From: an uncultured Nitrospiraceae bacterium
GTDB taxonomy: Bacteria > Nitrospirota > Thermodesulfovibrionia > Thermodesulfovibrionales > Dissulfurispiraceae
Assembly: GCA_963705105.1 (NCBI GenBank)
Contig: CAVPIW010000011.1
Span: forward strand, 24,080 to 88,079
Direction of reading: 5' to 3'
Length of the DNA: 64,000 nucleotides
Part shown: in pieces, positions 1,386-64,000 of the stretch
Layout: each line of letters opens with the position of its first letter
Position numbering within the stretch: the first letter of the stretch is position 1
Translations under genes and position numbers: made by a program
Notes under the pieces: generated by a model
Database searches by the model: none
What the model saw: only the letters and a program-made list of their open reading frames with translations
What the model was told of the DNA's origin: nothing

Positions 1386-1722
1386 TTACCTTATCGTTGC
1401 ATACGCCTTCCGGAAAGGCGGGGTGTATGCGCCACCGGACAGTAAACAATAGACAGTAGTCGGGAAAAGGCCACGAACAGCCGGCGGGAAGGTTGATGTG
1501 GTGAAAAGCCTTTCCGCTAAGATACCGTATTCATCCCCGGACCACACGTTGCCGTGTCTATCGATACCAAAATCCCGTCAGGCAACAGGCGCTGAACACC
1601 TGGAAAAGTCTCATCATCGCATTGGAAAGGCTTTGAACCATATCTGCCTTCCCGGCATCAACGCCTCGATCAGCAAGGCTTTGAGGCGCTTTGCCCCGCC
1701 TTTTCATACAACAGAAAGGTTT
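1386..1722 (+). repeat. Modular palindromic element E1 (end arms + heptamer tract + 168-bp hairpin module A at 1486-1653)
   Basis: Left arm TTACCTTATCGTTGCATACGCCTTCCGGAAAGGCGGGG, right arm CCCCGCCTTTTCATACAACAGAAAGGTTT; module A recurs across the window. Confidence 0.9.
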
Positions 1723-1757
1723 ACTCTCACTCACACTCGTACTCACACTGTCATTGT

Positions 1758-3059
1758 TCATCCCCTCCATGTCACCTTCTGGAACCAGCCCTTCATCTTG
1801 TCGAGAACATCCGCAAAGAGATTCCCTGAGGCCATGTCGGGGAAGTCGGACCTCATCATCTGGCCGCCGAACATCACAAGCCCGATTCCCGTGGCGTACA
1901 TAGGGCTGTTCAGCTCTATCCGGAGCATCGGTGCGACCTCCTGCCGGCCTGCCGCAACGGCCTCCCGGCCGGGGCCACGGCAGGGTACGTTTCCGGGAAA
2001 CCCCACCCGCACAGGCAGAGACAGCTCCGCCTCGGCAAGCCTGTCGAATCCCGTCAGGAGCGACGCTCCGCCGGTGAGCACCACTCCTGACAAGGTAAAA
2101 CCCTGTTCCTGGATCCTGTCGAGATCGTTCCTGATCAGGGCGAGCAGTTCTTCGCCCCGGGGCTGAAGGATCTCCGTCACGCAGGTCCTCTCCATGTGCT
2201 GCACCTGCCCGTCGATCGACACAACGTTCATAAAACCCGCCTGTTTCCCCTCTCTGCGGATCACGGAGCCGAATTCCTTCTTGATCCGCTCGGCCTCCTG
2301 AAAGGTGATCTTCAGCCCCACGGAGAGGTCATTGGTGAAATGATTCCCACCGATCCCGATGACGGAGGCATGCCTGAGCCATCCGTCACGGTAGACGGCG
2401 ATGTCCGTCGTGCCCCCGCCGATATCGACGAGGGCGATGCCCGACTCTCTTTCGTCGGCGGACAGCGTCGCCTCGGCGGAAGCGAGGGGCTGCATGACGA
2501 TATCCAGCACCTTCCTCTGTGCCCGCTCGCAGCAGCTTATGAGATTCTGCACGGATGCGACAGAACCGGTCACGATATAGACCTTCACCTCCAGCTTGTC
2601 ACCGGCGAGACCCACGGGGTCCCTGATACCCGCCCGGCCGTCGAGGATGAAGTCCGTCGGCAGCACATGGAGAATCTCGCGGTCGAGGGGAACGTACACG
2701 GCGCTTGCCGCATCGATGGCCCGTTCCACGTCTTCCTGTGTCACTGTCCGTCCCCTGACGGTCACGGCCCCGTGGCTGTCCAGGCTCTTCACGTGGCTTC
2801 CCGCTATGCCGACGAATACATCCCTGATCGGGATTCCCGCCTGTTCCTCCGCCCCCGCGACAGCCCGGCTTATGGCCTCTGCAGCGGCATCGACATCGGT
2901 CACCACACCCTTACGGAGTCCCTTCGACGGACCGGAGCTGAGGGCGATGATTTCGAGCCCCTTTGAGCCGACCGTTGCGACGATGGCGCAGATCTTCGTC
3001 GTGCCCACATCGAGACCGACGACATATCTAACGCCCTTTCTTCTTTTTATTCCGGTCAT
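1758..3059 (-). CDS. ftsA: Cell division protein FtsA
   Basis: VVGLDVGTTKI, LVDIGGGTTD and VLTGGASLL actin-fold motifs; lies between ftsQ and ftsZ. Confidence 0.97.
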   Translation of the reverse strand: MTGIKRRKGVRYVVGLDVGTTKICAIVATVGSKGLEIIALSSGPSKGLRKGVVTDVDAAAEAISRAVAGAEEQAGIPIRDVFVGIAGSHVKSLDSHGAVTVRGRTVTQEDVERAIDAASAVYVPLDREILHVLPTDFILDGRAGIRDPVGLAGDKLEVKVYIVTGSVASVQNLISCCERAQRKVLDIVMQPLASAEATLSADERESGIALVDIGGGTTDIAVYRDGWLRHASVIGIGGNHFTNDLSVGLKITFQEAERIKKEFGSVIRREGKQAGFMNVVSIDGQVQHMERTCVTEILQPRGEELLALIRNDLDRIQEQGFTLSGVVLTGGASLLTGFDRLAEAELSLPVRVGFPGNVPCRGPGREAVAAGRQEVAPMLRIELNSPMYATGIGLVMFGGQMMRSDFPDMASGNLFADVLDKMKGWFQKVTWRG

Positions 3060-3858
3060 GCCTGGTCTCTTTTGCGACAGCCGGTTTCGCCGGCCGCGGC
3101 GCCTTCGCAGGTTCAGTCACGTGCTCCACGGGCTGGACGATGATCCTGTTGGCGAACCGCAGATCGATGGACGCCACTTCGATGTTTCTCTTCCTGATTT
3201 CATCCTTCACAAACTGGAGTCTCTCAAGCTTTTTCTCGAAATCTCCGCTTCCCACCCTGACCGGTATGCCGTCGATCCTGAGCGTGATCTCCTCCGGCTT
3301 CTTCCCCGTCACTTCCATGTTGCCGTCAAGGACGAGCACCTTTCTCTCGTTGAGAAACCGCAGGAACGATATCACCTCGCGATAGGCCTCCCCGTTGTCC
3401 GTCGGATTGATATCCCGGATAACGGGAAGAAAGAGGGTCGTGTCCTCACGCATCCTCTCAAGGACGATGCCGTCCTTGTCGATGAGGAAAGGATCATCCT
3501 TTATGATGAGCAGGGCCACCGGCACAGCCTCACGGATACGGATTTCAACGGTCCCCGAAAGGTCCCTCCGAATGGCGGCATCTTTTATCCACGGCGATTT
3601 GATGAGTCTCTGATGAATTTCCGCAGGGGAGAGACGGAAGAGGTTGTCTTTGACTTTCAGACCCGACAGGCCCCTCAGTTCGTCTTCCTTGATGTGGTGG
3701 TTGCCGACGAAGGATATATCGGTAATAACGAGGGCATGGGCGGTGAGGTAGTACAGCAGGGCACCTGAGACGGACGCGAGAAGGACAAGAGATAACACAA
3801 AGCGGAGCCTTTTTTTCTCCTGCCTTTTTTTCAGGGTTCTCTTGCTTCTTCCTATCAC
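3028..3858 (-). CDS. ftsQ: Cell division protein FtsQ/DivIB
   Basis: Basic N-terminus, single TM helix, POTRA-like region, IDLRF C-terminal motif, dcw position. Confidence 0.9.
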
Positions 3859-4820
3859 TCTTTCCCGGCTTCTCCCATTGCAAGGCTGAGGATTTTACCG
3901 ACAAGATCACGAAAGGACAGACCGGACAGGCGGGCGATCTTGGGCAGGAGGCTCGTTTCGGTCATGCCGGGGATCGTGTTCACTTCGAGCACATAGGGTG
4001 TGCCGGAATCGGAGAGGATCAGGTCGACTCTCGTGGCGCCGGCGCATCCGAGGGCGTTGTGCGCCTTCAGCGCCGTCTGCCTGAGGATCTCGTATTCCTC
4101 GGCGCTCACCTCGGGAGGCAGGATGTATTCCGTCATGCCGGCAGTGTATTTCGCCTCATAGCTGTAGAATTCGAGGGACGGCCTGACCTCCACGCCGCCG
4201 AGGATCGTGCTGCCCAGTATCCCGATCTGGATCTCCTTCCCCTTGATGTACTGCTCGACGATCACCCTGTCGCCGTATTCGAATGCCGCGTCGAGGGCCG
4301 GGCCTGCCTCGGCGGTGGACCTGACGATGCTCACTCCGATACTCGATCCCTCGGCTGCAGGCTTGATCACCCAGGGCAGGTCAAAGGAAAGGGGCAGTGT
4401 TCCGTAAGGGGGAATATCGACACCTCCGGCGGCATCACCGGGATGCCCGGTCGATATGCCTCTTTGCAGCACGATGAAAGGCGCAACGGGGACGCCGTGA
4501 AAGGAGAAGAGCTTCTTGGACGCAACCTTGTCCATGGCCAGGGCCGATGCCAGCACGCCCGATCCCGTATAGGGTATTCCCATGACCTCCAGGAGGCCCT
4601 GAACGGCGCCGTTCTCACCCACCCCTCCATGAAGGGCGATGAAGGCGACGTCGACGGCTTCTTTCCTGAGCGTCTCACAGACCTGCGAGGAGGCATCGAT
4701 GAAGACGGAATCATGGCCGAGATCCAAAAGGGCCTGGTGAATCGCGGAGCCCGTTCTGAGCGAAACGTCCCGTTCCTCCGACGTTCCCCCCGCGAGCACT
4801 CCTATGCGTTTTCCCTTCAT
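3855..4820 (-). CDS. ddl: D-alanine--D-alanine ligase
   Basis: [26 protein letters not shown] and [10 protein letters not shown] motifs; start placed at ATG 4820 after GGAGG. Confidence 0.96.
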
Positions 4821-4923: not shown

Positions 4924-5264
4924 GTTACCTTATCTTTGCAGTTGCATGAAAAGGCAGGGCGAAGATGCCACTAAGCAGGAAGCAATAGACAGTAGGCTGC
5001 GGTGGGAATGAGACGACATATGCACCGACGGGAAGGCTGATGTGGTGAAAAGCCTTTCCGCTAAGATACCGCATTCATCCCCAGACCACACTTTGCCTTG
5101 TCAACCGATAACAAAAGCCCGTCAGGCAACAGGCGCTGAACACCTGGAAAGGTCTTATCATCGCATTGGAAAGGCTTTGAACCATATCTGCCTTCCCGTC
5201 GGCAGCATCGCATTCAGTAAGACTCCAAGGCATTCGCCCCGCCTTTCCGGATGGCCTATGCAAC
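4924..5264 (+). repeat. Modular palindromic element E2 (module A at 5030-5197)
   Basis: GTTGCATGAAAAGGCAGGGCGAAG ... module A ... CGCCCCGCCTTTCCGGATGGCCTATGCAAC. Confidence 0.88.
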
Positions 5265-5336
5265 GTTCAGAGCGTTCAGAGAACGGCACCTGCCGATCAA
5301 GTTGGCGTTGTCCTGCGAATTGTGCTATAAAGGTCC

Positions 5337-8048: not shown

Positions 8049-8556
8049 GTTGCAACAGGACCTCCGGATAGACGGGGCGAAGATATCACTGAAAAATAGA
8101 CGGTAGACAGCAGACAATATATTGTATAGTCGGAACAAAGCCACGACCACCTGGGCGGGAAGGCCGATGTGGTGATAAGCCTTTCCGCTAAGATACCGTA
8201 TTCGTCACCAGACCACACTTTGCCGTGTCTATCGACAGCAAATGCCCGCCGGGCAGCAAGCGCTGAACACCCTGGGATGTCTCATCATCGCATTGGAAAG
8301 GCTTTGAACCATATATCTGCCTTCCCGAAGGGGGCGCAGATATCAGAACTATTCCTTTCACTCACACTCACACTCACACTCACACTGTTTTTCAGGAGCT
8401 ATTCCTTTCACTCACACTCACACTCACACTGTTTTTCAGGAGCTATTCCTTTCACTCACACTCACACTCACACTGTTTTTCAGAAGCTATTCCTTTCACT
8501 CACACTCACACTCACACTCACACTCACACTGTTTTTCAGAGCGCTTCACCCCGCCT
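8049..8556 (+). repeat. Modular element E3 (module A at 8157-8326) with a compound tandem repeat at 8349-8540
   Basis: Module A, then four units of CTATTCCTTT(CACTCA)nCACTGTTTTTCAG with n=4,3,3,5, then right arm GCGCTTCACCCCGCC. Confidence 0.9.
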
Positions 8557-8558
8557 TG

Positions 8559-9947
8559 CTACCGCTCCACCTCGCCCCCGACGACGATCTCCCGGATCCT
8601 CAGCGTCGGCATCGCATCGGAAACGGGTACTCCCTGCGAGTCCTTTCCGCAGGTCCCGATGGAAAACCCGAGGTCCGATCCGACCATATCGATGGACTGC
8701 AGGATCTCGGGGCCGTTCCCGATGAGTGTCGCGCCGCGGACCGGCTCTCCGGCCTCACCGTTTTCGATCAGGTATCCCTCCTGCACTTCAAAGACGAAAT
8801 CGCCCGACACGGTGTCAACCTGTCCTCCGCCCATCTTCCTGACAAGAAGCCCCCGGTCCGTCGACCTCATCACATCCCCGGGCGAGTCCTTGCCTGGTTC
8901 GATGAACGTGTTGGTCATCCGGGGGATCGGCTTGTGCGCGTACGACTCCCTCCTGCCGTTCCCTGTGGACCGGGTCCCGTCGACCATGGCCGTATACCGG
9001 TCATAGAGATATCCCGTCAATATGCCATCCCTGACAAGGACCGTCCTGCCCGCGGGAGTTCCCTCGTCGTCGCAGGCATAGGACCCCCTTTTGTTCGGCA
9101 AAGTGGCGTCATCGATGACCGTTATGACAGGGGATGCGACAGGTTTCCCCATCTTCCCCGAATAGATGGAGAGCCCCTGCTGTGCCAGGTCGGCCTCGAG
9201 TCCATGGCCGATCGCCTCGTGGATCATCGTGCCGCCTGCCTCGGATGAGATCACCACGGGCATCCTCCCGCCGGGAGCCCTCCGTGCTTTCAGCATCATG
9301 ACAGCCCTGGCAGCAGCCCTGTGGGCGACTTCATGGAACGGGAACTCCTCAAACAACTCAAAACCTGTATGCCCTCCCGCGGATTCATGGCCAGTCTGGA
9401 TGACGCCCCCGTCTATGGCGATGACATGGACAATCCCCGTCGTGTATGTCCGGTGATCCCCGACGATGGATCCCTCAGAGGTGGCGATTTTGACGTCCTG
9501 CACGGAGTCGCGGTACACCACCGACACCTGCCGGACAAGGCTGTCGAACGCACGGGCCCTCCTGTTGGCTTCCATCACAATGCCGATCTTGACAGGCACC
9601 GCCACATTATCGGGCGGCACCCTCACGGGGAATGACTTCACCGGCGTGCCGCCTGCCAGGTTGATGACCACATCCCTCTCAGCCTGGCGCGCCGCCTGGC
9701 TCACGGTACGCGCCAGATCGCCCAACACCGTCTCGTCAAAGTCGTTGCTGTATGCGTAGGCGGTCTTCCGCCCCCAGATCAGGCGAATGCCGACGCCGGC
9801 GCTCGATCCGGCGATCACCTTTTCGATCTTGTCATCCTCGACCTGTATTGAAAGTGTCTTCCTGCGTTCGATATACACGTCGGCGTATTCGCCGCCCCGG
9901 GAAAGGGCTTTCTTTAGAAGCTTCTGCAGGACCTTGTCATCGATCAT
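8559..9947 (-). CDS. tldD: TldD-family metalloprotease
   Basis: HEAIGHGLEAD, DDEG, GNGRRESY, PRMTNT and CGKDSQ motifs. Confidence 0.95.
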   Translation of the reverse strand: MIDDKVLQKLLKKALSRGGEYADVYIERRKTLSIQVEDDKIEKVIAGSSAGVGIRLIWGRKTAYAYSNDFDETVLGDLARTVSQAARQAERDVVINLAGGTPVKSFPVRVPPDNVAVPVKIGIVMEANRRARAFDSLVRQVSVVYRDSVQDVKIATSEGSIVGDHRTYTTGIVHVIAIDGGVIQTGHESAGGHTGFELFEEFPFHEVAHRAAARAVMMLKARRAPGGRMPVVISSEAGGTMIHEAIGHGLEADLAQQGLSIYSGKMGKPVASPVITVIDDATLPNKRGSYACDDEGTPAGRTVLVRDGILTGYLYDRYTAMVDGTRSTGNGRRESYAHKPIPRMTNTFIEPGKDSPGDVMRSTDRGLLVRKMGGGQVDTVSGDFVFEVQEGYLIENGEAGEPVRGATLIGNGPEILQSIDMVGSDLGFSIGTCGKDSQGVPVSDAMPTLRIREIVVGGEVER

Positions 9948-10019
9948 GTATCCTCCCACTTTTGTCCAAAATCGCTCTCAATGGATCATTTACTCCGGCA
10001 ATTGAATCCTTTTAACCCT

Positions 10020-10108
10020 GTCAGTGCCGCAACCCCGCACCTGATGCGGGGGCGTCGGCAATCCTTCTGAAAACAAGAAGGATTCCGGACAATCCGGAAT
10101 GACAAACC
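10020..10108. repeat. REP-like doublet (family C, copy 1)
   Basis: GATTCCGG-N4-CCGGAATGAC hairpin plus an inverted partner hairpin; homologous copies at 31431 and 42705. Confidence 0.8.
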
Positions 10109-10184
10109 TCAATACGTTTGATGTGTTTAATTGCCTGATTAATAGAAAAACGATACTATCCATATTACCATACCGGCCGGGCCG

Positions 10185-10365
10185 GTAAGACAGTCATAGG
10201 CAGGTAGACAGTAAACCCCGTAGTTGCATGGAAAGGCGGGCGGGAAGGCCGATGTGCTTTGAACCACATCTGACTTCCCGGCAAAACAGCATTCTAATCG
10301 GAACCGAACAGAAGACTGCCGACTTTTGCCTTGACTGACACAGACACTGACACGAACACTGACTA
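10185..10365 (+). repeat. Modular element E4 with a miniature module A (about 10242-10279)
   Basis: TAAACCCCGTAGTTGCATGGAAAGGCGGG, GGGAAGGCCGATGTG..CACATCTGACTTCCC, hexamer tract. Confidence 0.75.
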
Positions 10366-11170: not shown

Positions 11171-11330
11171 GGACAGTTGACAGCAGACAGTAGTCGGAAT
11201 AAGACCGTAAAAAGGCGGACGGGAAGGCTGAACATCGCATTGGAAAGGATTTGAACCATATCTGCATTCCCGGTAAAAGCGTCGCAATCGGCTACACATA
11301 GAGAAACTTCAACCTGCCTTTTCATGAAAC
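11171..11330 (+). repeat. Modular element E5 with internally deleted module A (11221-11271)
   Basis: GGGAAGGCTGA joined to CATCGCATTGGAAAGG..GAACCATATCTGCATTCCC; tail shared with 31711-31763. Confidence 0.8.
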
Positions 11331-11464
11331 GGCAGGTTGACAGAAAATAACTAATCATATTATTCTAAAACAATACGTTATTCATTCTACGCATACCCTG
11401 CACTACTCAGCGACAGCATCCAGGCATCTTATCCGGTCTACATGATGAGAGGGGGCCAACAACG

Positions 11465-19172: not shown

Positions 19173-19420
19173 TAACCCCTGCAGTTGTATGAAAAGGCGC
19201 GGCGAGGGCGCCTCAACGCCTTGCTGAAAACCTTACCGTTGGCATACACTCCCGCGAAAGGCGGGGTGTATGCGCCGAAAACCTTGCTGCGGCGACACCG
19301 TAACCCTCACAGAAGACAACCTTTCAAGCCAATGGTCGAAAAAAGTGAGCCTTTTCCCCGGCACTCACACTGACACTCACACTGTCTTTCAGAGCGCTTC
19401 GCCCCGCCTTTCTATGCAAC
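19173..19420 (+). repeat. Modular element E6 (B + hexamer module)
   Basis: TAACCCCTGCAGTTGTATGAAAAGGCG ... GAAAACCTTGCTGCGGCGACACC ... ATGGTCGA ... CACTGA tract ... GCCCCGCCTTTCTATGCAAC. Confidence 0.88.
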
Positions 19421-19520
19421 GACACGGTGACGTCGACGATGAGGCAGCCAATTTTTTTGTTGAATCCCGCGACGTCATGTGATATATGTTGATATATAGC
19501 ATGTGACGAAGGAGGCACCT

Positions 19521-21233
19521 ATGTCCTGCAGAGGGATCATGTCTTTTCTCGTGAGAGGTCTTTTCCTTGTTTGTCTTGCCATATTGTTCACATTCCGGCA
19601 GTCGGAGGCGGCGATTCTGACCTACCCGGGGTCTCCGCCCTGCAATTCGACCCTGCAGGCATGCATTGACGGGGCAGGCACGGGGGACACCGTGGATATC
19701 GGGACGAATGAGGCTATCGAGGAGCACCTCGATATAACAAGAAGCATTGTCCTCAAAGCGGCGGCGGGTTTCAAACCCGTCATCGGGGGTCAGACAGGAG
19801 GCATCATCCGATTCCGGGGACCTGATGGGGCGGATAATTCCTTTACTTTCCAGGGGATTACCGTGCGGGATGGGAATATCGATATAACGCATAGCAGCAC
19901 CGGCACGCTGACAGTTATTGTCTCTGATAATGACCTTCTCGTTTTCACCGGGACACAGCAATCGGGCATCTCGATCAGCGACTACTGCTATAACAATACC
20001 AGCACCCGCTGTGGAGACCTCTTCTTCCTCGTATCGGGCAACAGGATGACTGTCCCGCCGAGCACGGGTCAGGCCGAGGGCATTTCGGTGTCGTCGACGG
20101 GAAGCGGGCACGCGACAGGGGCCATTCAAAATAACGACATACTCATGGGGGGAAATCATCAGGGCGCAGCCATCGACGTTTACAACGGCGGCACCATCCT
20201 CGCCGTTGACGTTTCAGGAAATACTGCCTCGGGAACGAATTACAATAACGGTATCAGCCTCTTCCAGACGTCCGCCGGCGCATCGACCACAGCGAGGATC
20301 ACGAACAACCTTGTGACAGGACAGAACGGGAATGTCGGGAACTCGGGCGCTATCGCGGTCTACGGCAGCAACGGAGAACTGGATGTCGCCGTGATGAACA
20401 ACACTATGGCGGGAAACAGAGACGGCATCAGTGTAGGGGCAAGACACGATCAGGGCGCGATAGTACGTGCGAGAGTCGCCAACAACATCATAGCGAACAG
20501 CGCCGAAACGGGGCTGAGCCTGGACTCCGATTTCGTCCGGACCATCGACAACAGATACAACCTCGTCTTCGGTAACAAGTTGAATGTTTACGTGCCGGGG
20601 CCGGGCACCGTCACCTCTGACCCAATGTTCGTGGGAAACGGCAATTACCGGCTCAGGCCCGACTCGCCGGCAGTGAACAAGGGGCTGAATACGCCTGTTG
20701 ACGGTATTCCTTCCACCGACCTCGACGGCCTCAGCCGCATTTTCGGGGGGACTGTCGACATCGGCGCCTACGAGTATGCGATCATGACGGCCCCTGAAAA
20801 CCAGCAGTATCACACGTACTCTGCATCGGCATCGCCCGTGAGGAGCCCTGCCCCTGCTCATGCCCGGCCGCTCGGCATCGGTCCCTTCGCCGCCGGCGGG
20901 TCGGACATCCGGCTTTCCGTCGACGTCGGTCCGCTCAGCAATCCCGTCGATGTGTATATCGCTGCGGCTTACCTCGGGATTGCGGCGCCGCCGCAACCGG
21001 ACATCTTCATCCTGAGACCGGACAACACTTTCCAGAATTCATCGGTGGGAGTCGTCCCATGGAAGACAGGGATCACGGAAGCCGTCGAAGCGCTCACGGG
21101 AAACATCCCGATTGCGTCGCTTCCGTCCGGTTTCTACCGCTTCTATGTTGCCGTTACTCCGGTCGACTCAACAAGCGCTTACTATATCTGGGAAACGGGT
21201 TTCTTCATCCCGTTCTTCATCATTATTCAGTAG
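19521..21233 (+). CDS. Secreted right-handed beta-helix protein with shared C-terminal domain
   Basis: Signal peptide, Asn-rich (I.NN) repeats, YRLRPDSPAVNKG...DLDG..R...VDIGAYE motif typical of choice-of-anchor Q-like domains. Confidence 0.8.
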   Translation: MSCRGIMSFLVRGLFLVCLAILFTFRQSEAAILTYPGSPPCNSTLQACIDGAGTGDTVDIGTNEAIEEHLDITRSIVLKAAAGFKPVIGGQTGGIIRFRGPDGADNSFTFQGITVRDGNIDITHSSTGTLTVIVSDNDLLVFTGTQQSGISISDYCYNNTSTRCGDLFFLVSGNRMTVPPSTGQAEGISVSSTGSGHATGAIQNNDILMGGNHQGAAIDVYNGGTILAVDVSGNTASGTNYNNGISLFQTSAGASTTARITNNLVTGQNGNVGNSGAIAVYGSNGELDVAVMNNTMAGNRDGISVGARHDQGAIVRARVANNIIANSAETGLSLDSDFVRTIDNRYNLVFGNKLNVYVPGPGTVTSDPMFVGNGNYRLRPDSPAVNKGLNTPVDGIPSTDLDGLSRIFGGTVDIGAYEYAIMTAPENQQYHTYSASASPVRSPAPAHARPLGIGPFAAGGSDIRLSVDVGPLSNPVDVYIAAAYLGIAAPPQPDIFILRPDNTFQNSSVGVVPWKTGITEAVEALTGNIPIASLPSGFYRFYVAVTPVDSTSAYYIWETGFFIPFFIIIQ

Positions 21234-21301
21234 CCCGGCAGTGTTTCCCGCGGCGAACTTTAAAGACGCCCTTTTTCATTGACCTGCGGAGAGGAGGAAA
21301 A

Positions 21302-23014
21302 ATGGTTCCGACAACGGCAGTCACTTCCCTGATCATTCTTCTGATTCCCTGTGTCGTCCTTGCCGCTCCGGGGGACTTCGACAGGACCTTCAATGCGCCT
21401 TCGGGGCTCGTCTTCTATGACCCCGGCGAATCGGGCAATGCCGTGGCTGTTCAGGATGACGGAGGCATCATCGTCGCCGGCACCATCAAGAGCGGAGGGA
21501 CCTCGGACGTCCTTGTCCTGCGCTACGACAGCTCCGGCGTCCTCGACGCCTCCTTCGGGTCGAAAGGCGCCGTCACGTACGGCCTTCCGGCCAGGGACGA
21601 GTCGGTGACAGCCGTCGCCGTCCAGCATGACGGCAGGATCGTCGTTGCCGGCGCAGCGCACAACGGCAGCAACAACGATGTGCTCGTTCTCCGGTATAAC
21701 AGCGACGGGACACCCGACACGACCTTCGGGACCGGAGGCGTTTTCATGTACAACGCCCCGGCAAACGGCGACGACTTTGCCAAGGCTGTGGCGCTCCAGC
21801 CGGAAAGCGGAAAGATCGTCGTTGTCGGTGGGACATATAACGGAAAAAACACCGATGTACTGGCCCTTACGTTGCACACGAACGGCACGCTGGACACGGC
21901 TTTCGGAGCGGGTGGTGCCGTCGTCTACAATGGCGCAGCCGACGGCGATGACGTGGGCGAGGCACTTGCCGTTCAGAGGGACGGAAAGATCGTCGTGGCC
22001 GGCGGCACCTTCAACGGATCGGACAATGACGTCCTGTTGCTCAGGTATACCCCGGACGGTGCGCCCGATGTGACCTTTGCCGGCGGTGACGGTGTCGCAT
22101 CCTTCAATCCCTCTTCGGGGACAAATGAAGCAGCCAAGGCTGTGTCCCTGCAGCGGGACGGAAAGATCGTCCTTGCCGGTGGCGTCGTCGTGGCGTCGTC
22201 GATCGATCTCCTGGTCCTGAGATACAACGGAAACGGTCTTCCCGACGCGGGCTTCGGGACCGGCGGGGCCGTCATCTACGGCGGGGGAAGCACCAATGAA
22301 TCGGCCAGGTCACTGTCTGTCCAGGCCGACGGAAAGATCGTTGTCGGGGGGATTGTGCAGGATACCGCCCAGGTCGACGGGATCATCATCCGGTATGACG
22401 ACCATGGCGTTCCCGACCCTGCCTTCGGTTCGGCCGGTGTCGTGACCTTCGGCACCTCCCTGGGATCGAGCGATTACATCAATGCCCTTCTGATGCAGCG
22501 GGATGGGAAAATCGTCGCCACAGGCCGCACATCTCCTCCGGCCATAGCGAGTTCCGATATTGTTGTCATGAGGGTCACCGGGCAGGAGTTCATGGAGCCG
22601 CCCACGGGCATGCAGACCTTTTCATACCCCGCAACGATGGCCCCTGTGCGGGGCGTCGACCCTGAGCTGGCCTGGCCTATCGGCACAGGCCCCTTCGTTG
22701 CCGGGGGAGACGTGGTCAATATCCGCGTCGGTCTGACCGGGTTTTCCTCACCTGTCGACATGTACGTCATCATCTCGGCGCCGTCCCTTTCGTCGGAACT
22801 CTGGCTGATGGGCCCGGACGGCGGCCTTCAACCCGCCTCATCAGGAATCGTGAAATGGAAAGATAATACTGCAAGGCCCGTCGATACGTCGCTCTTCGGT
22901 GATATTCCGTTGCGGATTTTCCCGCCGGGGACATATCAATTTTACATGGGAGTGACGACCGCCGGCAGCCTGGACGGTATCTATCTCTGGACGACCAATT
23001 TCGTCGTACCGTAA
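21302..23014 (+). CDS. Secreted delta-60 repeat (beta-propeller) protein with shared C-terminal domain
   Basis: Seven repeats of A.A.Q.DGKIVVAG...RY..DG..D..FG; SD GGAGG before ATG 21302. Confidence 0.88.
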   Translation: MVPTTAVTSLIILLIPCVVLAAPGDFDRTFNAPSGLVFYDPGESGNAVAVQDDGGIIVAGTIKSGGTSDVLVLRYDSSGVLDASFGSKGAVTYGLPARDESVTAVAVQHDGRIVVAGAAHNGSNNDVLVLRYNSDGTPDTTFGTGGVFMYNAPANGDDFAKAVALQPESGKIVVVGGTYNGKNTDVLALTLHTNGTLDTAFGAGGAVVYNGAADGDDVGEALAVQRDGKIVVAGGTFNGSDNDVLLLRYTPDGAPDVTFAGGDGVASFNPSSGTNEAAKAVSLQRDGKIVLAGGVVVASSIDLLVLRYNGNGLPDAGFGTGGAVIYGGGSTNESARSLSVQADGKIVVGGIVQDTAQVDGIIIRYDDHGVPDPAFGSAGVVTFGTSLGSSDYINALLMQRDGKIVATGRTSPPAIASSDIVVMRVTGQEFMEPPTGMQTFSYPATMAPVRGVDPELAWPIGTGPFVAGGDVVNIRVGLTGFSSPVDMYVIISAPSLSSELWLMGPDGGLQPASSGIVKWKDNTARPVDTSLFGDIPLRIFPPGTYQFYMGVTTAGSLDGIYLWTTNFVVP

Positions 23015-23362: not shown

Positions 23363-25537
23363 ATGAAAAGGAAGGCAGTTGCATTTTTTTCGCTTGCCGT
23401 TCTCGTTATCGTCTCGGTATCGCTCACTGATGCGTTGTCTCAACAGCCTGTCCCCGCTGTCAGGATAAACGATATGAGTGGCTCCATTCAGTTGGCTCAG
23501 CCCAACACATTCAAACTATCGTTGTCGCTCAACAGCGGCGAAAATACCGGGAATGCGGACTGGTGGCTTGCGGCAGCCACACCGGCCGGCATTTATTTTC
23601 TGTCTCCTGCCGGCTGGACACCCACCGTAGCCCCGGTTTATCAAGGGCCTCTCCTGAACATTCCGCCTCTCACGTTGTTTGATTTTCCGGTTACGGGGCT
23701 TCCGCCGTCAACATTCGCTTTTTACTTTGGCATTGATACGGAAATGGACGGGGCTATTACGGGGGATAGGCTCTTCTTCGACTGGGCGGAGGTATCATTT
23801 GCCGACAGTCCTCAGCCGGTTCAAGGTGCTGCAAAGGTCACCGTACCCGTCCTCATGTACTATTTGGAGCGTTACTTCACCCAAGCTGCCGGGCCAACCG
23901 ACCACGACAAGGCAATTGCGTCGGTTCTCGACAACTCCCCACAGAACAGGACATATTTTCGATCACTTCTCGATGCGTATAGAGCAATTCCATCTGGGAT
24001 GAAAATCCTGGTCTTTGACCAGTCAACACTTCAGATTACGGCAAATGTGACTGCACCGCTCGATCTCAGTTCTGTCAGGCAGAGGATTGCATTCTACGAT
24101 TCCGAACTCATGAGGAACAGACCGGATGCCCCAACGGGCCTCGCGGCTAAAAACGCATCCGTCCCGCCTGATCCTGATACTCCCGGCAGCGACAAATTTC
24201 AGGTCGAGCTGAAATGGGTCGACAACTCAGCGGATGAGGACGGGTTCGTCGTCTATCGTGCGAAGCAAGACGCCCTTACCAACAAGTTGACTATCGTATC
24301 AAGCCAGAAGGTTGCACCTGGTGTCATGACGTTTATTGATAAGCTTGCACAACCATCAAATATTGACGACCAATACTGCTATCAAGTCACCGCTTTCAGG
24401 CAGGTCGGCCAAAAATCAATAGAGTCTGACCTTTCCAATGTTGCCTGCTCATACTATCACTGGGTCAAGCTGCCGCAGCCGCCTGACGCCGATAAGGACG
24501 GTTTTTCGGACTCCTATGACAAGTGCCCTTTCGAAACAGGCATCAATCTCTTTGGTGCAGAGGGATGCCCTGACCTTGACGCTGATGGAGTAGCGGACAA
24601 GGACGATTCCTGCCCAATCACATGGGGAGAGGGCTCTGACGGGTGCCCCCTCAGGTACAATATCCGATGGATGGGCATGAAGGTTTTGAACAACTCCGGG
24701 ACGGTGGCGTATTACCCCTATCAAGTGATAGATGCAGAAGGAAAAGTCTTGTACGACATGGACTCTGATGATGAAGAGCCTTACCTGCTTTTTACGTCAA
24801 TAAATGGCATGACGCAGGGGGGTATGGCTCAACACTGGGTTGCGAATTGGTGTTGCGGAGAGAAGGTGAATGTGAAAAAGGGAGATGACTTTGAGCCTGA
24901 CAATGACATAAGCGGTGAAGAAACGTATAACACATCCCCTCTGCTGCAGGATCTTCTGAATCACGGACACACGGTATTCCCGGAGTTTCAAAAACAATTT
25001 GCCGAAATCGACAAGAAATTTGGCCTTGCCATGACAGTCTCCCTGAGAGAGCACGACGGTTTACAAACAGTGACGCTCGATGAGGCGGATAAGCTCGGTG
25101 ACGCCGTCAAACTCGGCGGCGTGGTCGCTGGCGCAGTTTCAACATGTGTGGGCACCGGCGGCTTTGGCTGTCTGGCTGCTATAGGGAAAGCCATAAAAGA
25201 CTTCGTCGATACGATATTTGGTTGGATGCAGCCTTCACAAACGGTGACGATAGACAATCCCGAAGACCACATGGGAAGCGTTTCCTGGGTCTTGGACCGT
25301 TCTGACGCTGCATATAAAACGAGTACGAACGGCACCTATGGATTCTCCTTCGACGTGCCGAAACAATATACCGCCGGGTGTCTCTATATCCCGTGCAGCG
25401 TCGCAAACAGCGTACCCTGGACCATGCGTGCCAGAGTCTATTTTTGCCTCTATCGGGAAGGCATACAGGAGAAAGACCTGAAAAGCCTCTGCGGCAACCT
25501 GACGAGTTATGCGAACGAGAATCCTAACGTGCAATAA
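23363..25537 (+). CDS. Large secreted protein: Ig-like domain, FN3-like domain, TSP3-like Ca-binding repeats, unknown C-terminal half
   Basis: Signal peptide; PDAPTGL..LKWVDNS.DEDGFVVYR..YCYQVTA (FN3-like); DADKDGFSDSYDKCP and DLDADGVADKDDSCP. Confidence 0.8.
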   Translation: MKRKAVAFFSLAVLVIVSVSLTDALSQQPVPAVRINDMSGSIQLAQPNTFKLSLSLNSGENTGNADWWLAAATPAGIYFLSPAGWTPTVAPVYQGPLLNIPPLTLFDFPVTGLPPSTFAFYFGIDTEMDGAITGDRLFFDWAEVSFADSPQPVQGAAKVTVPVLMYYLERYFTQAAGPTDHDKAIASVLDNSPQNRTYFRSLLDAYRAIPSGMKILVFDQSTLQITANVTAPLDLSSVRQRIAFYDSELMRNRPDAPTGLAAKNASVPPDPDTPGSDKFQVELKWVDNSADEDGFVVYRAKQDALTNKLTIVSSQKVAPGVMTFIDKLAQPSNIDDQYCYQVTAFRQVGQKSIESDLSNVACSYYHWVKLPQPPDADKDGFSDSYDKCPFETGINLFGAEGCPDLDADGVADKDDSCPITWGEGSDGCPLRYNIRWMGMKVLNNSGTVAYYPYQVIDAEGKVLYDMDSDDEEPYLLFTSINGMTQGGMAQHWVANWCCGEKVNVKKGDDFEPDNDISGEETYNTSPLLQDLLNHGHTVFPEFQKQFAEIDKKFGLAMTVSLREHDGLQTVTLDEADKLGDAVKLGGVVAGAVSTCVGTGGFGCLAAIGKAIKDFVDTIFGWMQPSQTVTIDNPEDHMGSVSWVLDRSDAAYKTSTNGTYGFSFDVPKQYTAGCLYIPCSVANSVPWTMRARVYFCLYREGIQEKDLKSLCGNLTSYANENPNVQ

Positions 25538-25735
25538 CCCTGCAGTTGCATGAAAAGGCGGGGGGAAGCGCTCTGAAAAAAAAGTGTCAGTGGCAGTGTG
25601 AGTGTCAGCAAAAAGCTCCTTTTTCAGACATTGGCTTAAAGTATTGTCTTCCGTCTCGATACAGGTGTCGCCGCAGCATGGTTTTCGGCGTATACACCCC
25701 GCCTTTCCGGAAAGCGTATGCAACGATACGGTGAA
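25535..25735 (-). repeat. Modular element E7 (B'' + hexamer module)
   Basis: Begins at the TAA stop of the upstream gene: TAACCCTGCAGTTGCATGAAAAGGCGGGG ... CCCCGCCTTTCCGGAAAGCGTATGCAACGATACGGTGA. Confidence 0.88.
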
Positions 25736-29643: not shown

Positions 29644-29649
29644 TGTCAT

Positions 29650-29845
29650 TTCCGGAAAGGCGGGGGGAATGCGCCGACAAGCCTCGGTGCTGCGAAACCT
29701 TTGTCTTCCCGCGAAGATCATCTCAGGTCGATGGTCGATGACATAAAGGATGAAGTCCTGATACACCAATAATAACCGATCATGCTCGCTATCAGCGAGG
29801 CTCTGAGGCGCTTTGCCCCGCCTTTTCATGCAACGGCAAAGTTAA
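29650..29845 (+). repeat. Modular element E8 (B' + C module), between xseA and xseB
   Basis: TCCGGAAAGGCGGGG ... GCCTCGGTGCTGCGAAACC ... GATGGTCGA ... GCCCCGCCTTTTCATGCAACGGCAAAGTTA. Confidence 0.85.
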
Positions 29846-30636: not shown

Positions 30637-30657
30637 GTTTTCACCTTCACAACAGGA

Positions 30658-30836
30658 CTTCCGGAAAGGCGGGGCGTATGTGCCGAAAAGCCTCGGTGCT
30701 GCGAAACCTCTGCCTTCCCATAAAGACCATTTCAGACCGACGATCGGAAAGAATGATCCTTTTACTGACACTCACACTGTCACTGACGCTGTTTTTCAGA
30801 GCGCTTTGCCCCGCCTTTTCATGCAACGGGAAGTTT
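30658..30836 (+). repeat. Modular element E9 (B' + hexamer module)
   Basis: Same arms as E8 with the hexamer module on the right. Confidence 0.85.
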
Positions 30837-31190: not shown

Positions 31191-31411
31191 TTAACCTTTT
31201 CGTTGCAATACACTTCCGGGAAAGGCGGGGCGTATGCGCCGAAAACCTTGCTGCGGCGACACCATAACTCTCGCAGAAGACAACCTTTCAAACCAATGGT
31301 CGACCACACAAAGAGTGGAATCCTGAAAGACAAACCTGACGAGGCTTATCGTCGCCTTCAGCAAGGCTTTGAGGCGTTTCGCCACGCCTTTCCATGCAAC
31401 AGAAAGGTTAA
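31191..31411 (+). repeat. Modular element E10 (B + C module), both ends intact
   Basis: TTAACCTTTTCGTTGCA ... TGCAACAGAAAGGTTAA. Confidence 0.9.
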
Positions 31412-31579: not shown

Positions 31580-31763
31580 CACCCCGACGGGGAGGCTGAT
31601 GTGCCGTGTCTGTTGATGCCGAGAGACTGCCGGGCAACAGGCGCTGAACACCTGAAAATGTCTCATCATCGCATTGGAAAGGCTTTGAACCATATCTGCC
31701 TCCCCGGAGAAAGCGTCGCAACCGACTGAACTTAGAGAAACCTCTTCTTGTCTTTTCATGAAA
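31580..31763 (+). repeat. Modular element E11 with partly deleted module A (31589-31705)
   Basis: GGGGAGGCTGATGTG ... CATATCTGCCTCCCC. Confidence 0.82.
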
Positions 31764-31776
31764 CTGAAAAGCACGT

Positions 31777-34632: not shown

Positions 34633-35040
34633 TTCCCTTATCGTTGCATACGCTTTCCGGAAAGGCGGGGTGTATGCGCCACCGGAGAGTAAACAATAGA
34701 CAGCAGTCAGTAGTCGGCAAAGGCCACGAACAGCCCACGGGAAGGCTGATGTGGTGAAAAGCCTTTCCGCTAAGATACCGTATTCATCCCCGGACCACAC
34801 TTTGCCGTGTCTATCGATACCAAAATCCCGTCAGGCAACAGGCGCTGAACACCTGGAAAAGTCTCATCATCGCATTGGAAAGGCTTTGAACCATATCTGC
34901 CTTCCCGGCATCAGCGCCGGCGGTAGTGACACCAACACTGACACTCACACTGTCACTGTTTTTCAGAGCGCTTCGCCCAGTCTTTTCACGCAACTGATCG
35001 GTCATTCCTTTCACTCACACTCCCACTGACACTTACACTA
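34633..35040 (+). repeat. Modular element E12 (module A at 34739-34906, hexamer modules)
   Basis: Left part nearly identical to E1; right part is the hexamer module. Confidence 0.9.
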
Positions 35041-36260: not shown

Positions 36261-36428
36261 GTGAAGGCTGATGTGGTGAAAAGCCTTTCCGCTAAGACAC
36301 CTTATTGATCACCAGACCACCCTTTGCCGTGTCTATCGATGCCAAAAGCCCGTCAGGCAACAGGCACTGAACAGCTGAAGATGTCTCATCATCGCATTGG
36401 AAAGGCTTTGAACCATATCTGCCTTCCC
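36261..36428 (+). repeat. Module A copy (E13)
   Basis: 168-bp match to 1486-1653. Confidence 0.9.
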
Positions 36429-39557: not shown

Positions 39558-39823
39558 TGTATTCTCCTTGATGGTTTAATGGCCCTAACTAAATATTATC
39601 GCTTTGTCACAGGCCTTGTCAAATGAGTCCGATCCTTGATTTGCGGGATTTCAGGCGGGCCAGGACGCCACGACAGGGAATTCCGAAAGGGATTGTGAAG
39701 AACCGAAGGACAGGGAAAATGCGTAATCGAGTTGATTTGTTGATTAAGTTGATTGAGCTGATTGAGTTTACCTGCTCATCTGCTTGACTCAATGAACCTA
39801 TTCAACTTAATCAACTGAGTAGT

Positions 39824-39875
39824 TAACTCTGTAGTTGCATTGAAAGGCGGGGCGTGCATTGCAACGATAAGGTTA
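39824..39875. repeat. Minimal 52-bp element E14 (both end motifs, no cargo)
   Basis: TAACTCTGTAGTTGCATTGAAAGGCGGGGCGTGCATTGCAACGATAAGGTTA. Confidence 0.8.
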
Positions 39876-42704: not shown

Positions 42705-42787
42705 TGTCATTCCGGTTTGTCCGGAATCTTTCTCTTTTCAAAAGAATTCCCGGCGCCCCCGCATCAAGTGCGGGGTTGCGGGAATGA
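42705..42787. repeat. REP-like doublet (family C, copy 3)
   Basis: GTCATTCCGGTTTGTCCGGAATC ... ATTCCCG..CCCCGCATCAAGTGCGGGG..CGGGAATGA. Confidence 0.78.
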
Positions 42788-42888
42788 AAAAATTGTGTGG
42801 TGTTACTCCCGACATTCTTAGTAATGACGCAACCGCTCAATGACTCAATAACTCCTTAATGACTCAATGACTTCGTTCCGGTCACATT

Positions 42889-43449: not shown

Positions 43450-43665
43450 AACCCTGCAGTTGCATGAAAAGGCGGGGCGAAGAGCCTCAAAGGCTTGCTG
43501 AAGGCGACGATGATCATTGTCATCTTCGTGTTTCAGGATTCCTCTCTTTGTGTCATCGACCATTTGCGTATAGTATGTCTTTCGTCTCGATACAGGTGTC
43601 GCCGCAGCAAGGTTTTCGGCACATACCCCCCGCCTTTCCGGGAGTGTATTGCACCGATAAGGATA
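43449..43665 (-). repeat. Modular element E15 (B'' + C module)
   Basis: TAACCCTGCAGTTGCATGAAAAGGCGGGG ... TTGCACCGATAAGGATA; its terminal base overlaps the slp ATG. Confidence 0.88.
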
Positions 43666-43718: not shown

Positions 43719-43954
43719 CGCCCGAAATATCTCTACGGCGGGACTTTGCAAACGAGGATGGGGTTTGGTTTCTGAAGCAAAATTCACGGGTAATGTGAAC
43801 TGCGGCGGGAGTCGAAGGCGGAAGCCGCAGCGGGAGCCGCACAGCGCACCTGCGAAGACATCTATTTTCATAACAAAGACATGCACTTGAGAAGAGGTAG
43901 TTTATTTTGCGAAGAAATCATGCCCCATCCTCGTGTCACGTTATTTTGGACACC
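43719..43954. repeat. Family D element (long imperfect inverted arms)
   Basis: 43719-43790 matches 63726-63797 and 43900-43954 matches 63461-63515, both as reverse complements. Confidence 0.82.
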
Positions 43955-43982
43955 AATGATCACATTTTCAATCGCGGGAAGG

Positions 43983-46127: not shown

Positions 46128-46312
46128 TCCCATCGTTGCATACGGCAGATCGAAAGGCGGGGAGAATGCGCCGAAAACCTTGATGCGGCGACACCATAAC
46201 CGTTACGGAAGACAGCGTTTCAAGCCGATGGCCGAAAAGTGAGCCTTTTTACTGACACTGACACTCACACTGACACTGTTTTTCAGAGCGCTTTGCCCCG
46301 CCTTTTCATGCA
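46128..46312 (+). repeat. Modular element E16 (B + hexamer module)
   Basis: ATCGTTGCATACG..GAAAGGCGGGG ... GCCCCGCCTTTTCATGCA. Confidence 0.87.
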
Positions 46313-46366
46313 TCACCAGGAGGTGAATTTGCCCGCCCCGCCCTTCCTGTTCTATACTTTCCCGGT

Positions 46367-49267: not shown

Positions 49268-49726
49268 TTGAATATTAAAAAGAGACTGAATGAGTTGGGC
49301 ATCACATTGCAGGAGGGGCCGAAACCTCTCGGTTCTTATGTACCCTGTGTGCAGACGGGCAACCTGCTTTTTCTGAGCGGGATTCTGCCCCTGCGGGAGG
49401 GGAAGCTGACGAGGACCGGCAGGGTCGGTGAGTCCGTGACCCTCGAAGAGGCGCAGGACGAGGCGAGGCAGATCGTCGTGAACGCCCTCTCCGTCCTGAA
49501 GGGCCATCTCGGGGCCCTGAACCGCATCAGCCGGTGCGTGAAGCTGAACGGGTTCGTCGCCTCGGCTCCGTCGTTCTACGACCAACCGAAGGTCCTCAAT
49601 GCGGCATCGGACCTGCTCTTTGAGATCTTCGGCGAAGCGGGACGGCATACGAGGGCCGCTGTCGGCGTCGCCGTGCTCCCCCTGAATGCGGCCGTCGAGA
49701 TCGACTTCATCTTCGAGATCGACTAA
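49268..49726 (+). CDS. RidA/YjgF family protein
   Basis: YVP..QTGNLLFLSG, NAASDLL and GRHTRAAVGV..LP. Confidence 0.92.
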   Translation: MNIKKRLNELGITLQEGPKPLGSYVPCVQTGNLLFLSGILPLREGKLTRTGRVGESVTLEEAQDEARQIVVNALSVLKGHLGALNRISRCVKLNGFVASAPSFYDQPKVLNAASDLLFEIFGEAGRHTRAAVGVAVLPLNAAVEIDFIFEID

Positions 49727-50040
49727 CCCGCAGTTGCTGAAAAGGCGGGACAAAGTGCCTCGAAGCCTTGCTTATCGTGACGCTCCTCCGGGAAGGCAGA
49801 TATGGTTCAAAGCCTTTCCAATGCGATGATGAGACATGTCAGGTGTTCAGCGCCTGTTGCCTGACGGGCGCTTGGCATCAACAGACACAGCAAAGGGTGG
49901 TCTGGTGATAAATGAGGTATCTTAGCGGAAAGGCTTTTCACCACATCAACCTCCCCGTCGTGCTTTTGTAGTCTGATTCTGTCTATTGTCTATTGTTTAC
50001 TGTTTACTGTTCTATGGCATCTTCGCCCCGCCTTTCCGTT
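49724..50040 (-). repeat. Modular element E17 (module A reverse-complemented at 49790-49956)
   Basis: Starts at the ridA TAA (TAACCCGCAGTTGCTGAAAAGGCGGG); heptamer tract at 49980-50012. Confidence 0.88.
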
Positions 50041-54867: not shown

Positions 54868-55175
54868 ACATTGGAAAGGCTTTGATCCGATAGTGCTCCT
54901 TTTTCCTGACACTCACGCTGTCACTGACACTATTTTTCAGAGCGCTTCGTCCCGCCTTTTTATGACAATGCAGGGTATAATAACCTTATCGTTGCATACG
55001 CCTTCCGGAAAGGCGGGGTGTATGCGCTGAAAACCTTGCTGCGGCGACACCTTAACCGTCACAAAAGAGGACGTTTCAAGCCGATGATCGAAAAAGTGTT
55101 TACTGACACTGACACTCACACTGACACTGTTTTTCAGAGCGCTTCGCTCCGCCTTTTCATGCAACTGTAAAGTAT
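54868..55175 (+). repeat. Tandem modular elements E18a (module A right-half + hexamer) and E18b (B + hexamer, 54981-55175)
   Basis: CATTGGAAAGGCTTTGATCC fragment, then TAACCTTATCGTTGCATACGCC ... ATGCAACTGTAAAGTA. Confidence 0.87.
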
Positions 55176-56242: not shown

Positions 56243-56432
56243 TAAACCTTATCGTTGCATAGGCCCGACCGAAAGGCGGGGTGTATGCGCCGAAAACCTT
56301 GATGCGGCGACACCTTAACCGTCCGAAAGACGAAGTTTCAACGCGATGGTCGAAAAAGTGAGCTTTTTTACTGACACTGACACTCACACTGACACTATTT
56401 TTCAGAGCGTTTCGCCCCGCCTTTTCATGCAA
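56243..56432 (+). repeat. Modular element E19 (B + hexamer module)
   Basis: Same arms; close to E22 in sequence. Confidence 0.88.
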
Positions 56433-58723: not shown

Positions 58724-58796
58724 TGGGCCCACCAGGACTCGAACCTGGGACCAACCGGTTATGAGCCGGCAGCTCTACCAGCTGAGCTATGGGCCC
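58724..58796 (-). tRNA. tRNA with CAU anticodon, probably tRNA-Ile2 (lysidine); CCA not encoded
   Basis: GGGCCCATAGCTCAGCTGGTAGAGCTGCCGGCTCATAACCGGTTGGTCCCAGGTTCGAGTCCTGGTGGGCCCA folds as a cloverleaf; paired G1-C72 excludes the initiator; position after dnaG-rpoD favours Ile2. Confidence 0.92.
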
Positions 58797-62278: not shown

Positions 62279-62446
62279 GGGAAGGCTGATGTGGTGAAAA
62301 GCCTTTCCGCTAAGATGCCTCATACATCCCCGGATCACCCTTTGCCGTGTCTGCTGATACCGGAAGCCCGTCGGGCAACAAGAGCTGAACACAGCGAGAT
62401 GTCTCATCATCGCACTGGAAAGGCTTTGATCCGTATCTGCCTTCCC
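62279..62446 (+). repeat. Module A copy (E20)
   Basis: 168-bp diverged match with both arms conserved. Confidence 0.9.
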
Positions 62447-63422: not shown

Positions 63423-63460
63423 GTCATGTCATCCTTTCAATAGACGCTATCACAACCACC

Positions 63461-63797
63461 GGTGTCCAAAATAATCTGACACGAGGATAGGGCATGATTT
63501 CTTCGCAAAATAAACCCTTATCACCCCAATGAGATCTCAGGAAAGACGGGGCGAATGCGCCGAAAAGCATCGGTGCTGCGAAACCTCTGCCTTCCCGTAC
63601 AGACCATTGCAGACCAACGATCGATGCCACCGAGAATGAATTCCTGATTCACCAATAATAAACAATCATGCTCGCTATCAGCGAGGCTTTGAGGCGCTTT
63701 GCACCGTCTTTTCGTGCAAGGCAACCGTGAATTTTGCTTCAGAAACCAAACCCTATCCTCGTTTTCAAGGTCCCGCTGTCAGACTATTTCGGACACG
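63461..63797. repeat. Family D element enclosing modular element E21 (63540-63722)
   Basis: Arms GGTGTCCAAAATAATCTGACA... and ...TGTCAGACTATTTCGGACAC flank a B'+C element. Confidence 0.85.
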
Positions 63798-63825
63798 AGT
63801 GTATCACAACAGACACTTCGAACGT

Positions 63826-64000
63826 TAACCTTATCGTTGCACTACACTTCCGGGAAAGGCGGGGCGTATGCGCCGAAAACCTTGCTGCGGCGACACCATA
63901 ACCATCCGAAAGACGAAGTTTCAACGCGATGGTCGAAAAAGTGAGCTTTGTTACTGACACTCACACTGACACTGTTTTTCAGAGCGTTTCGCCACGCCTT
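63826..64000 (+). repeat. Modular element E22 (B + hexamer module), cut by the window edge
   Basis: TTAACCTTATCGTTGCACTACAC ... CAGAGCGTTTCGCCACGCCTT. Confidence 0.87.

Follow-up and report, generated by a model that had tools for sequence, protein, structure and literature searches.

What are the palindromic repeats that sit between the genes of an uncultured Nitrospiraceae bacterium, and what has spread them there? The question arises from a stretch of 64,000 nucleotides (the window; contig C11, 24080–88079, of a 19-contig assembly of 4,226,846 bp with 57% G+C), for which an earlier note had described about 22 loci, most of them with shared facing arms around different interiors, and had suggested a non-autonomous mobile or recombination system with conserved ends and exchangeable cargo. 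Our analysis makes it very probable that these repeats are a non-coding family of miniature transposable elements with inverted repeats (MITEs), moved by a transposase that is encoded outside the element. The mobile, non-autonomous half of the earlier proposal is borne out by target duplications, by paralogous empty sites and by the empty orthologous gap between ftsA and ftsZ, while the exchangeable cargo was not supported as stated there.

The loci themselves are real, as all 23 listed coordinates bear an arm or a core and 19 of them overlap profile matches to a 213-bp element or a 168-bp core. The coordinates 10185 and 39824 are arm-profile matches (E 1.9e-5 and 1.2e-5, respectively), 11171 carries a partial core with a weak arm, and 8049 a core with a variant arm. 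With at most 3 mismatches allowed, the window contains the two arm strings of the earlier note 4 and 2 times, respectively, 0 being expected from shuffles, and an arm profile finds 25 sites at E ≤ 10, 7 of which lie at E 2–8. Comparison of the window with the whole genome by blastn yielded 24 stretches with at least five copies, which amount to 9.5% of its length (6,107 bp), and 35 families of direct repeats are present within the window.

Alignment of two-armed copies of 190–235 bp gave a canonical unit of 213 bp. Arm A opens with ACCTTATCGTTGCAT, followed by an 11-nt insert forming the small palindrome CGCCTTCCGGAAAGGCG, then by AAAGGCGGGG and the inner repeat GCGCCGAAAACCTTGCTGCGGCGAC; arm B is the mirror image of arm A minus the insert (GTCGCCTTCAGCAAGGCTTTGAGGCGC..CCCCGCCTTTTCATGCAACTGNAAGGT), and the element ends with GCAACTGNAAGGT. 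The facing tips read CCYTNNNGTTGCAT ... ATGCAACNNNARGG, and both arms together represent imperfect inverted repeats of ~75 bp that are unlike at the two ends. These ends are joined by 48 long-range pairs, with 90% of cells paired across 148 copies, and a single copy folded as single-stranded DNA forms one long hairpin (–49.5 kcal/mol, z –7.05). A unit of 213 bp is too short to leave room for a transposase gene.

A search of the whole genome with a 213-position profile (E ≤ 1e-3) returned 743 matches at 707 loci, which occupy 104,158 bp or 2.46% of the 4.23-Mb genome. Among 886 recognisable termini, 570 pair into 285 two-ended elements. The two bases just outside the ends agree on both sides in 152 of 209 full-length copies compared with ~31 expected from base composition, and when the element is read as CCTT...AAGG, identical 4-mers flank 119 of these 209. 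A perfect 4-bp duplication surrounds 138 of the 285 two-ended copies, and the central 2 bp match in 181. The commonest duplicated 4-mers are TTTA (25), TTAA (25), TAAA (18), TGAA (9) and TATA (8), and the target logo (T 0.91, T/A, A/T, A 0.91) gives the consensus T-W-W-A. In 24 of the 138 cases the matching 4-mer lies outside T..A (TTAT, GAAA, TTAC, ATTA and others), which shows that the duplication, not the element, includes the outer positions and measures 4 bp rather than 2.

Insertion was also visible from the empty side. The joined flanks of the 138 copies with a perfect duplication were compared with the genome (at least 25 nt on each side, self-matches excluded), and paralogous uninterrupted sites of 85–96% identity were recovered for 14 of them, which have such look-alike sites because they landed in another repeat. 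In each of the five filled/empty pairs displayed, the empty site has just one tetranucleotide; it equals the duplication in three, is one base off in one and has diverged in the last, e.g., ..GCATGATTG[TTTA]..[TTTA]TTATTGG.. vs. the empty ..GCATGATTGTTTATTATTGG.. in one pair. Further hosts of empty sites are the 168-bp core, another repeat family of this genome (F3, see below) and an older copy of the element's own family. Moreover, the gap between ftsA and ftsZ, which holds a copy in the window, measures 479 bp in this genome. Its length ranges from –49 to 213 bp in the 29 relatives with both genes identified and is below 100 bp in 27 of them; no relative among the 29 has it filled. Among the canonical copies the median nearest-neighbour identity is 94.4%, and 36 of 151 have a sibling of at least 98% identity, so that some of the spread has to be recent.

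MITEs are recognised by a size of ~50–800 bp, terminal inverted repeats of at least 10–15 bp, a target duplication of 2–10 bp, many dispersed and mostly intergenic copies, and filled/empty sites; the element shows this size, inverted repeats, a duplication, dispersed intergenic copies and filled/empty sites. A transposase encoded outside the element would bind the CCTT...GTTGCAT tips, cut the target with a 4-bp stagger and insert the element; gap repair would then yield the 4-bp duplication, and selection would remove copies inside genes, leaving the intergenic ones.

The diversity of interiors is that of subfamilies and nested insertions. Besides the canonical form there is a hexamer type of ~190–200 bp, in which CACTGA/CACTCA hexamers and GTTTTTCAGAGCGC take the place of arm B's inner repeat, and a composite type of 333–393 bp, the longest common form, in which the arms surround AT-rich short repeats and the palindromic 168-bp core. 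Runs of 3–7 hexamer units occur 320 times in the genome, and at 8351–8540 of the window a 44-bp unit containing hexamers is itself repeated in tandem. The core has 97 distinct full-length loci genome-wide, loci that match on both strands (83) being counted once. Fourteen composites retain both termini and 7 of these have a perfect duplication, which indicates that composites move as units. At the lower end of the size range stand minimal forms of the two tips only, e.g., 39823–39875, with TTAA on both sides. Part of the mosaic look is due to nesting, with copies inserted in other repeats including earlier copies of their own family. In some copies (e.g., C14:122620–122902 and C6:257885–258151) the interior includes a further perfect hairpin, GGGGCCGTTCCCCGAACGGCCCC, which may be a small insert or a REP-like unit (REP, repetitive extragenic palindromic). 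A by-eye impression that the ends of the core are kin to the inner part of the arm was left unclear by MAFFT (55% mean column identity) and remains a lead.

Several observations weigh against a MITE family with a separate transposase. No cognate transposase with matching ends was found in this genome, and the arm tips are absent from the ends of its resident IS256, IS3, ISL3, IS1634, IS4, IS1182 and IS110 elements; a repeated insertion sequence (IS) could have stayed unassembled in this 19-contig genome. Not even a 2-bp duplication is present in 104 of the 285 two-ended copies, and 316 of the 886 termini stand alone, without a partner within 900 bp; we read both as decay. As for the 168-bp core, no target duplication of its own was found, 38 of the 97 cores have no match to the element profile within 160 bp, and within the 14 composites conservation is higher in the core than in the arm tips (mean identity 0.898 vs. 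0.79); lone cores are read as decayed composites. Finally, no filled/empty difference between strains was seen for the family in contigs of five metagenome runs covering 32.5 kb of the window, a weak test from which nothing can be concluded, since these contigs mostly end at repeats.

The resident elements of the genome comprise IS256 (~17 copies), IS3, ISL3, IS1634, IS4, IS1182 and IS110, together with four Y1_Tnp genes; IS256, IS3, ISL3, IS1634 and IS4 were found via multi-copy DNA of at least 500 bp, and IS1182 is present as a single copy. Searches for PF07282 (TnpB) and PF13701 gave 0 matches in this genome. A parent IS with matching ends was found neither in the assembly nor among the IS1380 copies of three genomes of the same bacterial family (G004, G060 and G061). 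Facing arms 0.7–8 kb apart with matching 4-mers form 14 pairs; the six pairs examined enclose housekeeping genes (purH, gltX, an efflux pump, an ABC ATPase etc.) and are taken as chance, so that no copy whose arms enclose a transposase, for which the earlier note suggested looking, came to light among them. Arm B shares an identical 12-nt string with a subterminal part of an IS4-type element that has a 6–7 bp duplication, which is probably chance as well. One ISL3-family element (C6:856616–857946, 5 copies in the genome) has landed among the AT-rich short repeats of a composite and is bracketed by GTAACTAAG; such repeats may serve as a hot spot for insertions in general.

Among relatives, the exact sequence is close to private. 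The 19-mer core of the arm occurs 332 times here; of 40 relatives, 39 lack it and one has a single occurrence. Its presence in 2 stretches among the genomes of 185,579 species is read as chance. An 18-mer of the arm was absent from the viral contigs searched, as was the whole element from the plasmid collection searched. Yet no fewer than two further genera of this bacterial family have related elements. G004, from another genus of the family, has an element of ~215 bp (40 scored matches of 104 candidates) with the tip motif ACCCTAACGTTGCA...TGCAACTGTCAGGT as found here, with unlike ends and with visible 4-bp duplications in several copies; when a G004 copy served as BLAST query against 68 genomes of the family, only G000 and G004 were matched. 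G015, from a third genus, has five near-full-length copies of a related element, likewise of ~215 bp with this tip motif, unlike ends and 4-bp duplications; one copy has TAAA on both sides, and partial element ends of G015 adjoin ordinary genes and no transposase. Fragments of the element were found in G019 and G013.

In a more far-reaching reading, the elements would be the part that can be seen of a lasting association with a transposase of unrecognised type, kept across several genera of the family. It would resemble a REPIN (a hairpin-forming REP doublet) and its REP-associated tyrosine transposase (RAYT), with a cut-and-paste or copy-in mechanism at a 4-bp T-W-W-A target and with the core, in view of its better conservation and its lack of a duplication, as a part selected by the host or by the enzyme. 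We regard this more elaborate scenario as unlikely.

A cassette exchange, as proposed by the earlier note, in which the fixed arms are recombination sites and the interiors are swapped, is very unlikely. Several interiors do occur between the same arms, and other repeat families lie beside or within copies. However, 270 of the 285 two-ended copies consist of one A and one B arm, and 183 have a length of 200–219 bp with one fixed interior. The variants are discrete subfamilies with many members each, and the mosaics that were checked are elements inserted into another repeat with their own 4-bp duplication. An arm-linked integrase or recombinase is absent from the window, and strain pairs differing only in their interior were not seen in the contigs of the five runs, which mostly end at repeats.

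Still less credible is the idea that the repeats are host-selected modules, such as terminators, promoters, protein-binding sites or structured RNAs, spread by recombination. Copies do lie in core operons (ftsA/ftsZ, xseA/xseB) with no evident damage, conservation is higher in the core than in the arms, and the long hairpin has great stability, all of which would suit a function for the host. The genomic context and the pattern of substitutions speak against it. Based on crude gene calls (greedy longest open reading frames (ORFs), 3,672 genes), 258 of 270 copies are intergenic, i.e., outside long ORFs; the gaps that hold them are tandem in 158, divergent in 50 and convergent in 48 cases compared with 1,745, 618 and 583 in the background, and within tandem gaps 88 copies have the A end upstream and 70 the B end. 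Relative to genes, neither orientation nor the type of gap is thus biased, and neither promoter-like sites (4 vs. 6.3 expected) nor terminator-like sites (16 vs. 16.6) are enriched in 20 kb; such a pattern argues for selfish insertion purged from genes rather than for a regulatory module. Compensatory changes are few in the element (83 vs. 692 broken-pair cells), and RNAalifold found no consensus structure in the 148-copy alignment. For the core, too, no evidence of a structured RNA was seen, with 20 compensatory cells vs. 413 broken ones, 20 being the maximum of 200 shuffles. The repeat elements of the window match no Rfam family at gathering score, a tRNA at 58724–58796 being the only Rfam match there, and the target duplications and empty sites show insertion.

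Least probable of all is a REPIN-like origin, in which the arms would be REP doublets copied by a single-copy HUH tyrosine transposase (a RAYT) via single-stranded hairpins: the hairpin fold, the small palindrome in arm A, the related families kept in several genera and the four Y1_Tnp genes (222–326 aa), each of which has inverted repeats of its own on its flanks and the best of which scores 72.2 bits against the NCBIfam model for REP-associated tyrosine transposases (below the cut-off of 80), would fit, but the Y1-flanking repeats (GGGGTCAG... types, 5–21 copies each with 4 mismatches or fewer) bear no relation to the arms, every Y1 gene is at least 1.4 kb away from the closest arm, and the elements carry 4-bp target duplications, which HUH single-strand or RAYT-type movement is not known to make. 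The Y1_Tnp genes themselves (C5:264943–265275, C7:292773–293102, C5:339860–340186 and C6:957998–958324; L017–L020) have inverted repeats of 20–29 nt, mostly opening with GGGGTCAG, and resemble small RAYT-type systems without kinship to the main family.

Returning to the MITE family, its copies in the window are compiled in Table 1, set among ordinary chromosomal genes. Pfam scans of 60 ORFs (54 + 6) identified ftsQ, ftsA, ftsZ, ddl, glmU, glmS, two uvrD-like genes, xseA, xseB (PF02609), mutS2, a Clp-type AAA+ ATPase similar to clpB/clpC, pyrR, pyrB, pyrC, rho, rpoD and dnaG, and matched no transposase, RAYT or integrase family, in agreement with the earlier reading. The splitting of core operons was likewise confirmed for ftsA/ftsZ and xseA/xseB. 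The statement that most large intergenic gaps are occupied holds for the window, but not genome-wide, where 241 of 626 gaps of 300–599 bp and 137 of 252 gaps of at least 600 bp hold a copy according to the crude ORF-based calls.

Table 1. Copies and fragments of the element in the window (window coordinates).
Type	Coordinates	Strand	Description
Composite	1388..1720	+	333 bp; arm A, AGACAGT-type short repeats, core 1486–1653, arm B; TTTA/TTTA; between ftsA stop and ftsZ start
Composite	4930..5270	-	Arm B 4930–4964, core 5030–5197, arm A 5226–5270; gap between ddl and a hypothetical gene
Composite variant	8049..8561	+	Variant arm, short repeats, core 8157–8326, 44-bp CACTCA array 8351–8540, arm-B remnant
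Fragment	10212..10291	+	Arm-B piece joined to a core deletion derivative keeping only both core ends
Fragment	11222..11338	+	Partial core (profile 119–168) and degenerate arm
Fragment and hexamer type	19177..19428	+	Arm-B fragment 19177–19229 abutting a 199-bp copy 19230–19428
Hexamer type	25537..25732	-	196 bp; between two beta-propeller-repeat genes
Truncated copy	29649..29841	+	Without the first 19 profile positions; xseA stop 29643, xseB start 29863
Hexamer type	30655..30833	+	Profile 17–211
Canonical	31194..31408	+	215 bp; TTAA/TTAA; hairpin –49.5 kcal/mol, z –7.05
Fragment	31601..31771	+	Partial core (profile 64–167) and arm remnant; F4 repeat just upstream (~31420–31545)
Composite	34636..35002	+	Arm A, core 34739–34906, hexamers, arm B
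Lone core	36263..36428	.	168-bp core without recognisable outer arms; then part of the arm-B inner repeat
Minimal copy	39823..39875	+	~50 bp, two arm tips; TTAA on both sides (read from the sequence)
Canonical	43451..43663	-	213 bp; ATAA/ATAA
Hexamer type	46132..46315	+	Profile match
Composite	49725..50038	-	Arm B, core 49790–49956, short repeats, arm-A-like end
Fragment and hexamer type	54892..55173	+	Hexamer and arm-B piece 54892–54979, then a 191-bp copy 54983–55173; between rho and an AIR-synthase-like gene
Hexamer type	56246..56432	+	Profile match
Lone core	62279..62446	.	168 bp, no outer arms
Element variant	63532..63720	+	Inside an unrelated F3 repeat copy 63454–63810
Hexamer type	63828..64000	+	Cut off by the window end

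Two unrelated repeat families, F3 and F4, are also present in the window and were not part of the earlier list. F3 comprises 111 loci of ~240 bp with the inverted ends GGTGTCCAAAATAA...CGAGGATGGGGCATGATTTCTTCGCAAAATAAAC (in the window at 43722–43961 and 63454–63810), and copies of the main element are inserted into it at TTTA. F4 comprises 73–80 loci, each with a TGTCATTCCGG...CCGGAATC hairpin and a GC-rich hairpin (in the window at 9985–10144, 42662–42823 and ~31420–31545). Two IS110-family copies of 1.55 kb lie inside the F4 hairpin (C5:53831–55377 and C5:59225–60778), and F4 loci differ between strains, 42630–42888 being replaced by 8 letters (X3, X5) and 9989–10235 by 88 letters (X3, X9). 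Furthermore, two large genes of the window (21059–23014 and 25602–27476) encode DUF5122 beta-propeller repeats, whose internal repeats of ~171–177 bp explain several families of direct repeats and bear no relation to the elements.

The family is abundant and real, apparently undescribed and ordinary in kind, and the general picture of MITEs is unchanged by it. A full-text literature search found no description of MITEs in Nitrospirota or of the present family, and the main text of a 2024 MITE survey of 183,232 genomes leaves Nitrospirota unmentioned (PMC11602168). Its relevance is rather a practical one. The organism or close strains turned up in 20 public runs, which belong to 13 studies on sediment, soil and water, and in this widespread uncultured bacterium the elements make up ~2.5% of the genome, with larger intergenic gaps, breaks in short-read assemblies and spurious ORFs as consequences; a profile of the element would help the annotation and binning of this lineage. 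Copies in essential operons, e.g., between ftsA and ftsZ, provide a natural test of how well long hairpin inserts are tolerated in transcripts, and the sharp 4-bp T-W-W-A target together with the conserved CCYT...GTTGCAT tips offers a handle for finding the transposase.

Among known systems, the IS1380 family (PF13701), which has CC...GG termini and a duplication of 4–5 bp, resembles the MITE in its ends (here CCTT...AAGG) and in the 4-bp duplication, and PF13701 is present in 24 of 68 genomes of the bacterial family. IS1380 elements of G060 and G061 (L107–L111) are 1,652 bp long with the ends CCCAGATAATTCATAAAT, CCCAG...CTGGG being present in all five copies, and their duplications all follow NTAR (CTAA, GTAG, TTAG, TTAG, CTAG). 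These ends and those of the G004 elements (CCCACATAATTCATAAAC) share only CC with the MITE tips, and the target here is T-W-W-A in contrast to N-T-A-R. Against an IS1380-derived MITE speaks that PF13701 has no match in this genome and that the three IS1380 end types examined do not match.

With REPIN-RAYT systems the family shares palindromic doublets, a high copy number and persistence in related genera; it differs from them in its target duplications and in lacking an arm-associated RAYT. Correia elements duplicate TA and are set apart by this from the family described here, which duplicates 4 bp at T-W-W-A. Compared with MITEs of the Correia or ERIC type (ERIC, enterobacterial repetitive intergenic consensus), the inverted repeats are also unusually long (~75 bp) with unlike ends (arm A carrying the additional 11-nt palindrome), and no parent IS was found. 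An internal minisatellite, comparable to the CACTGA/CACTCA hexamers and the 44-bp array described above, is reported for the BrickBuilt MITE of Porphyromonas gingivalis (PMC4596501), although organism and sequence differ. The closest likeness in general build is offered by the Correia elements of Neisseria (Correia repeat enclosed elements, CREE) and by ERIC of enterobacteria, which, as far as they are portrayed in PMC10969869 and PMC11602168, are likewise non-coding and of small size, have terminal inverted repeats and short target duplications, occur in hundreds of mostly intergenic copies, some of them in operons, include subtypes with internal deletions and form a hairpin if transcribed. 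Copy numbers given in one of these accounts are >120 for Correia elements and 711 for ERIC in Photorhabdus (PMC10969869), which places the 707 loci of the present family at the high end.

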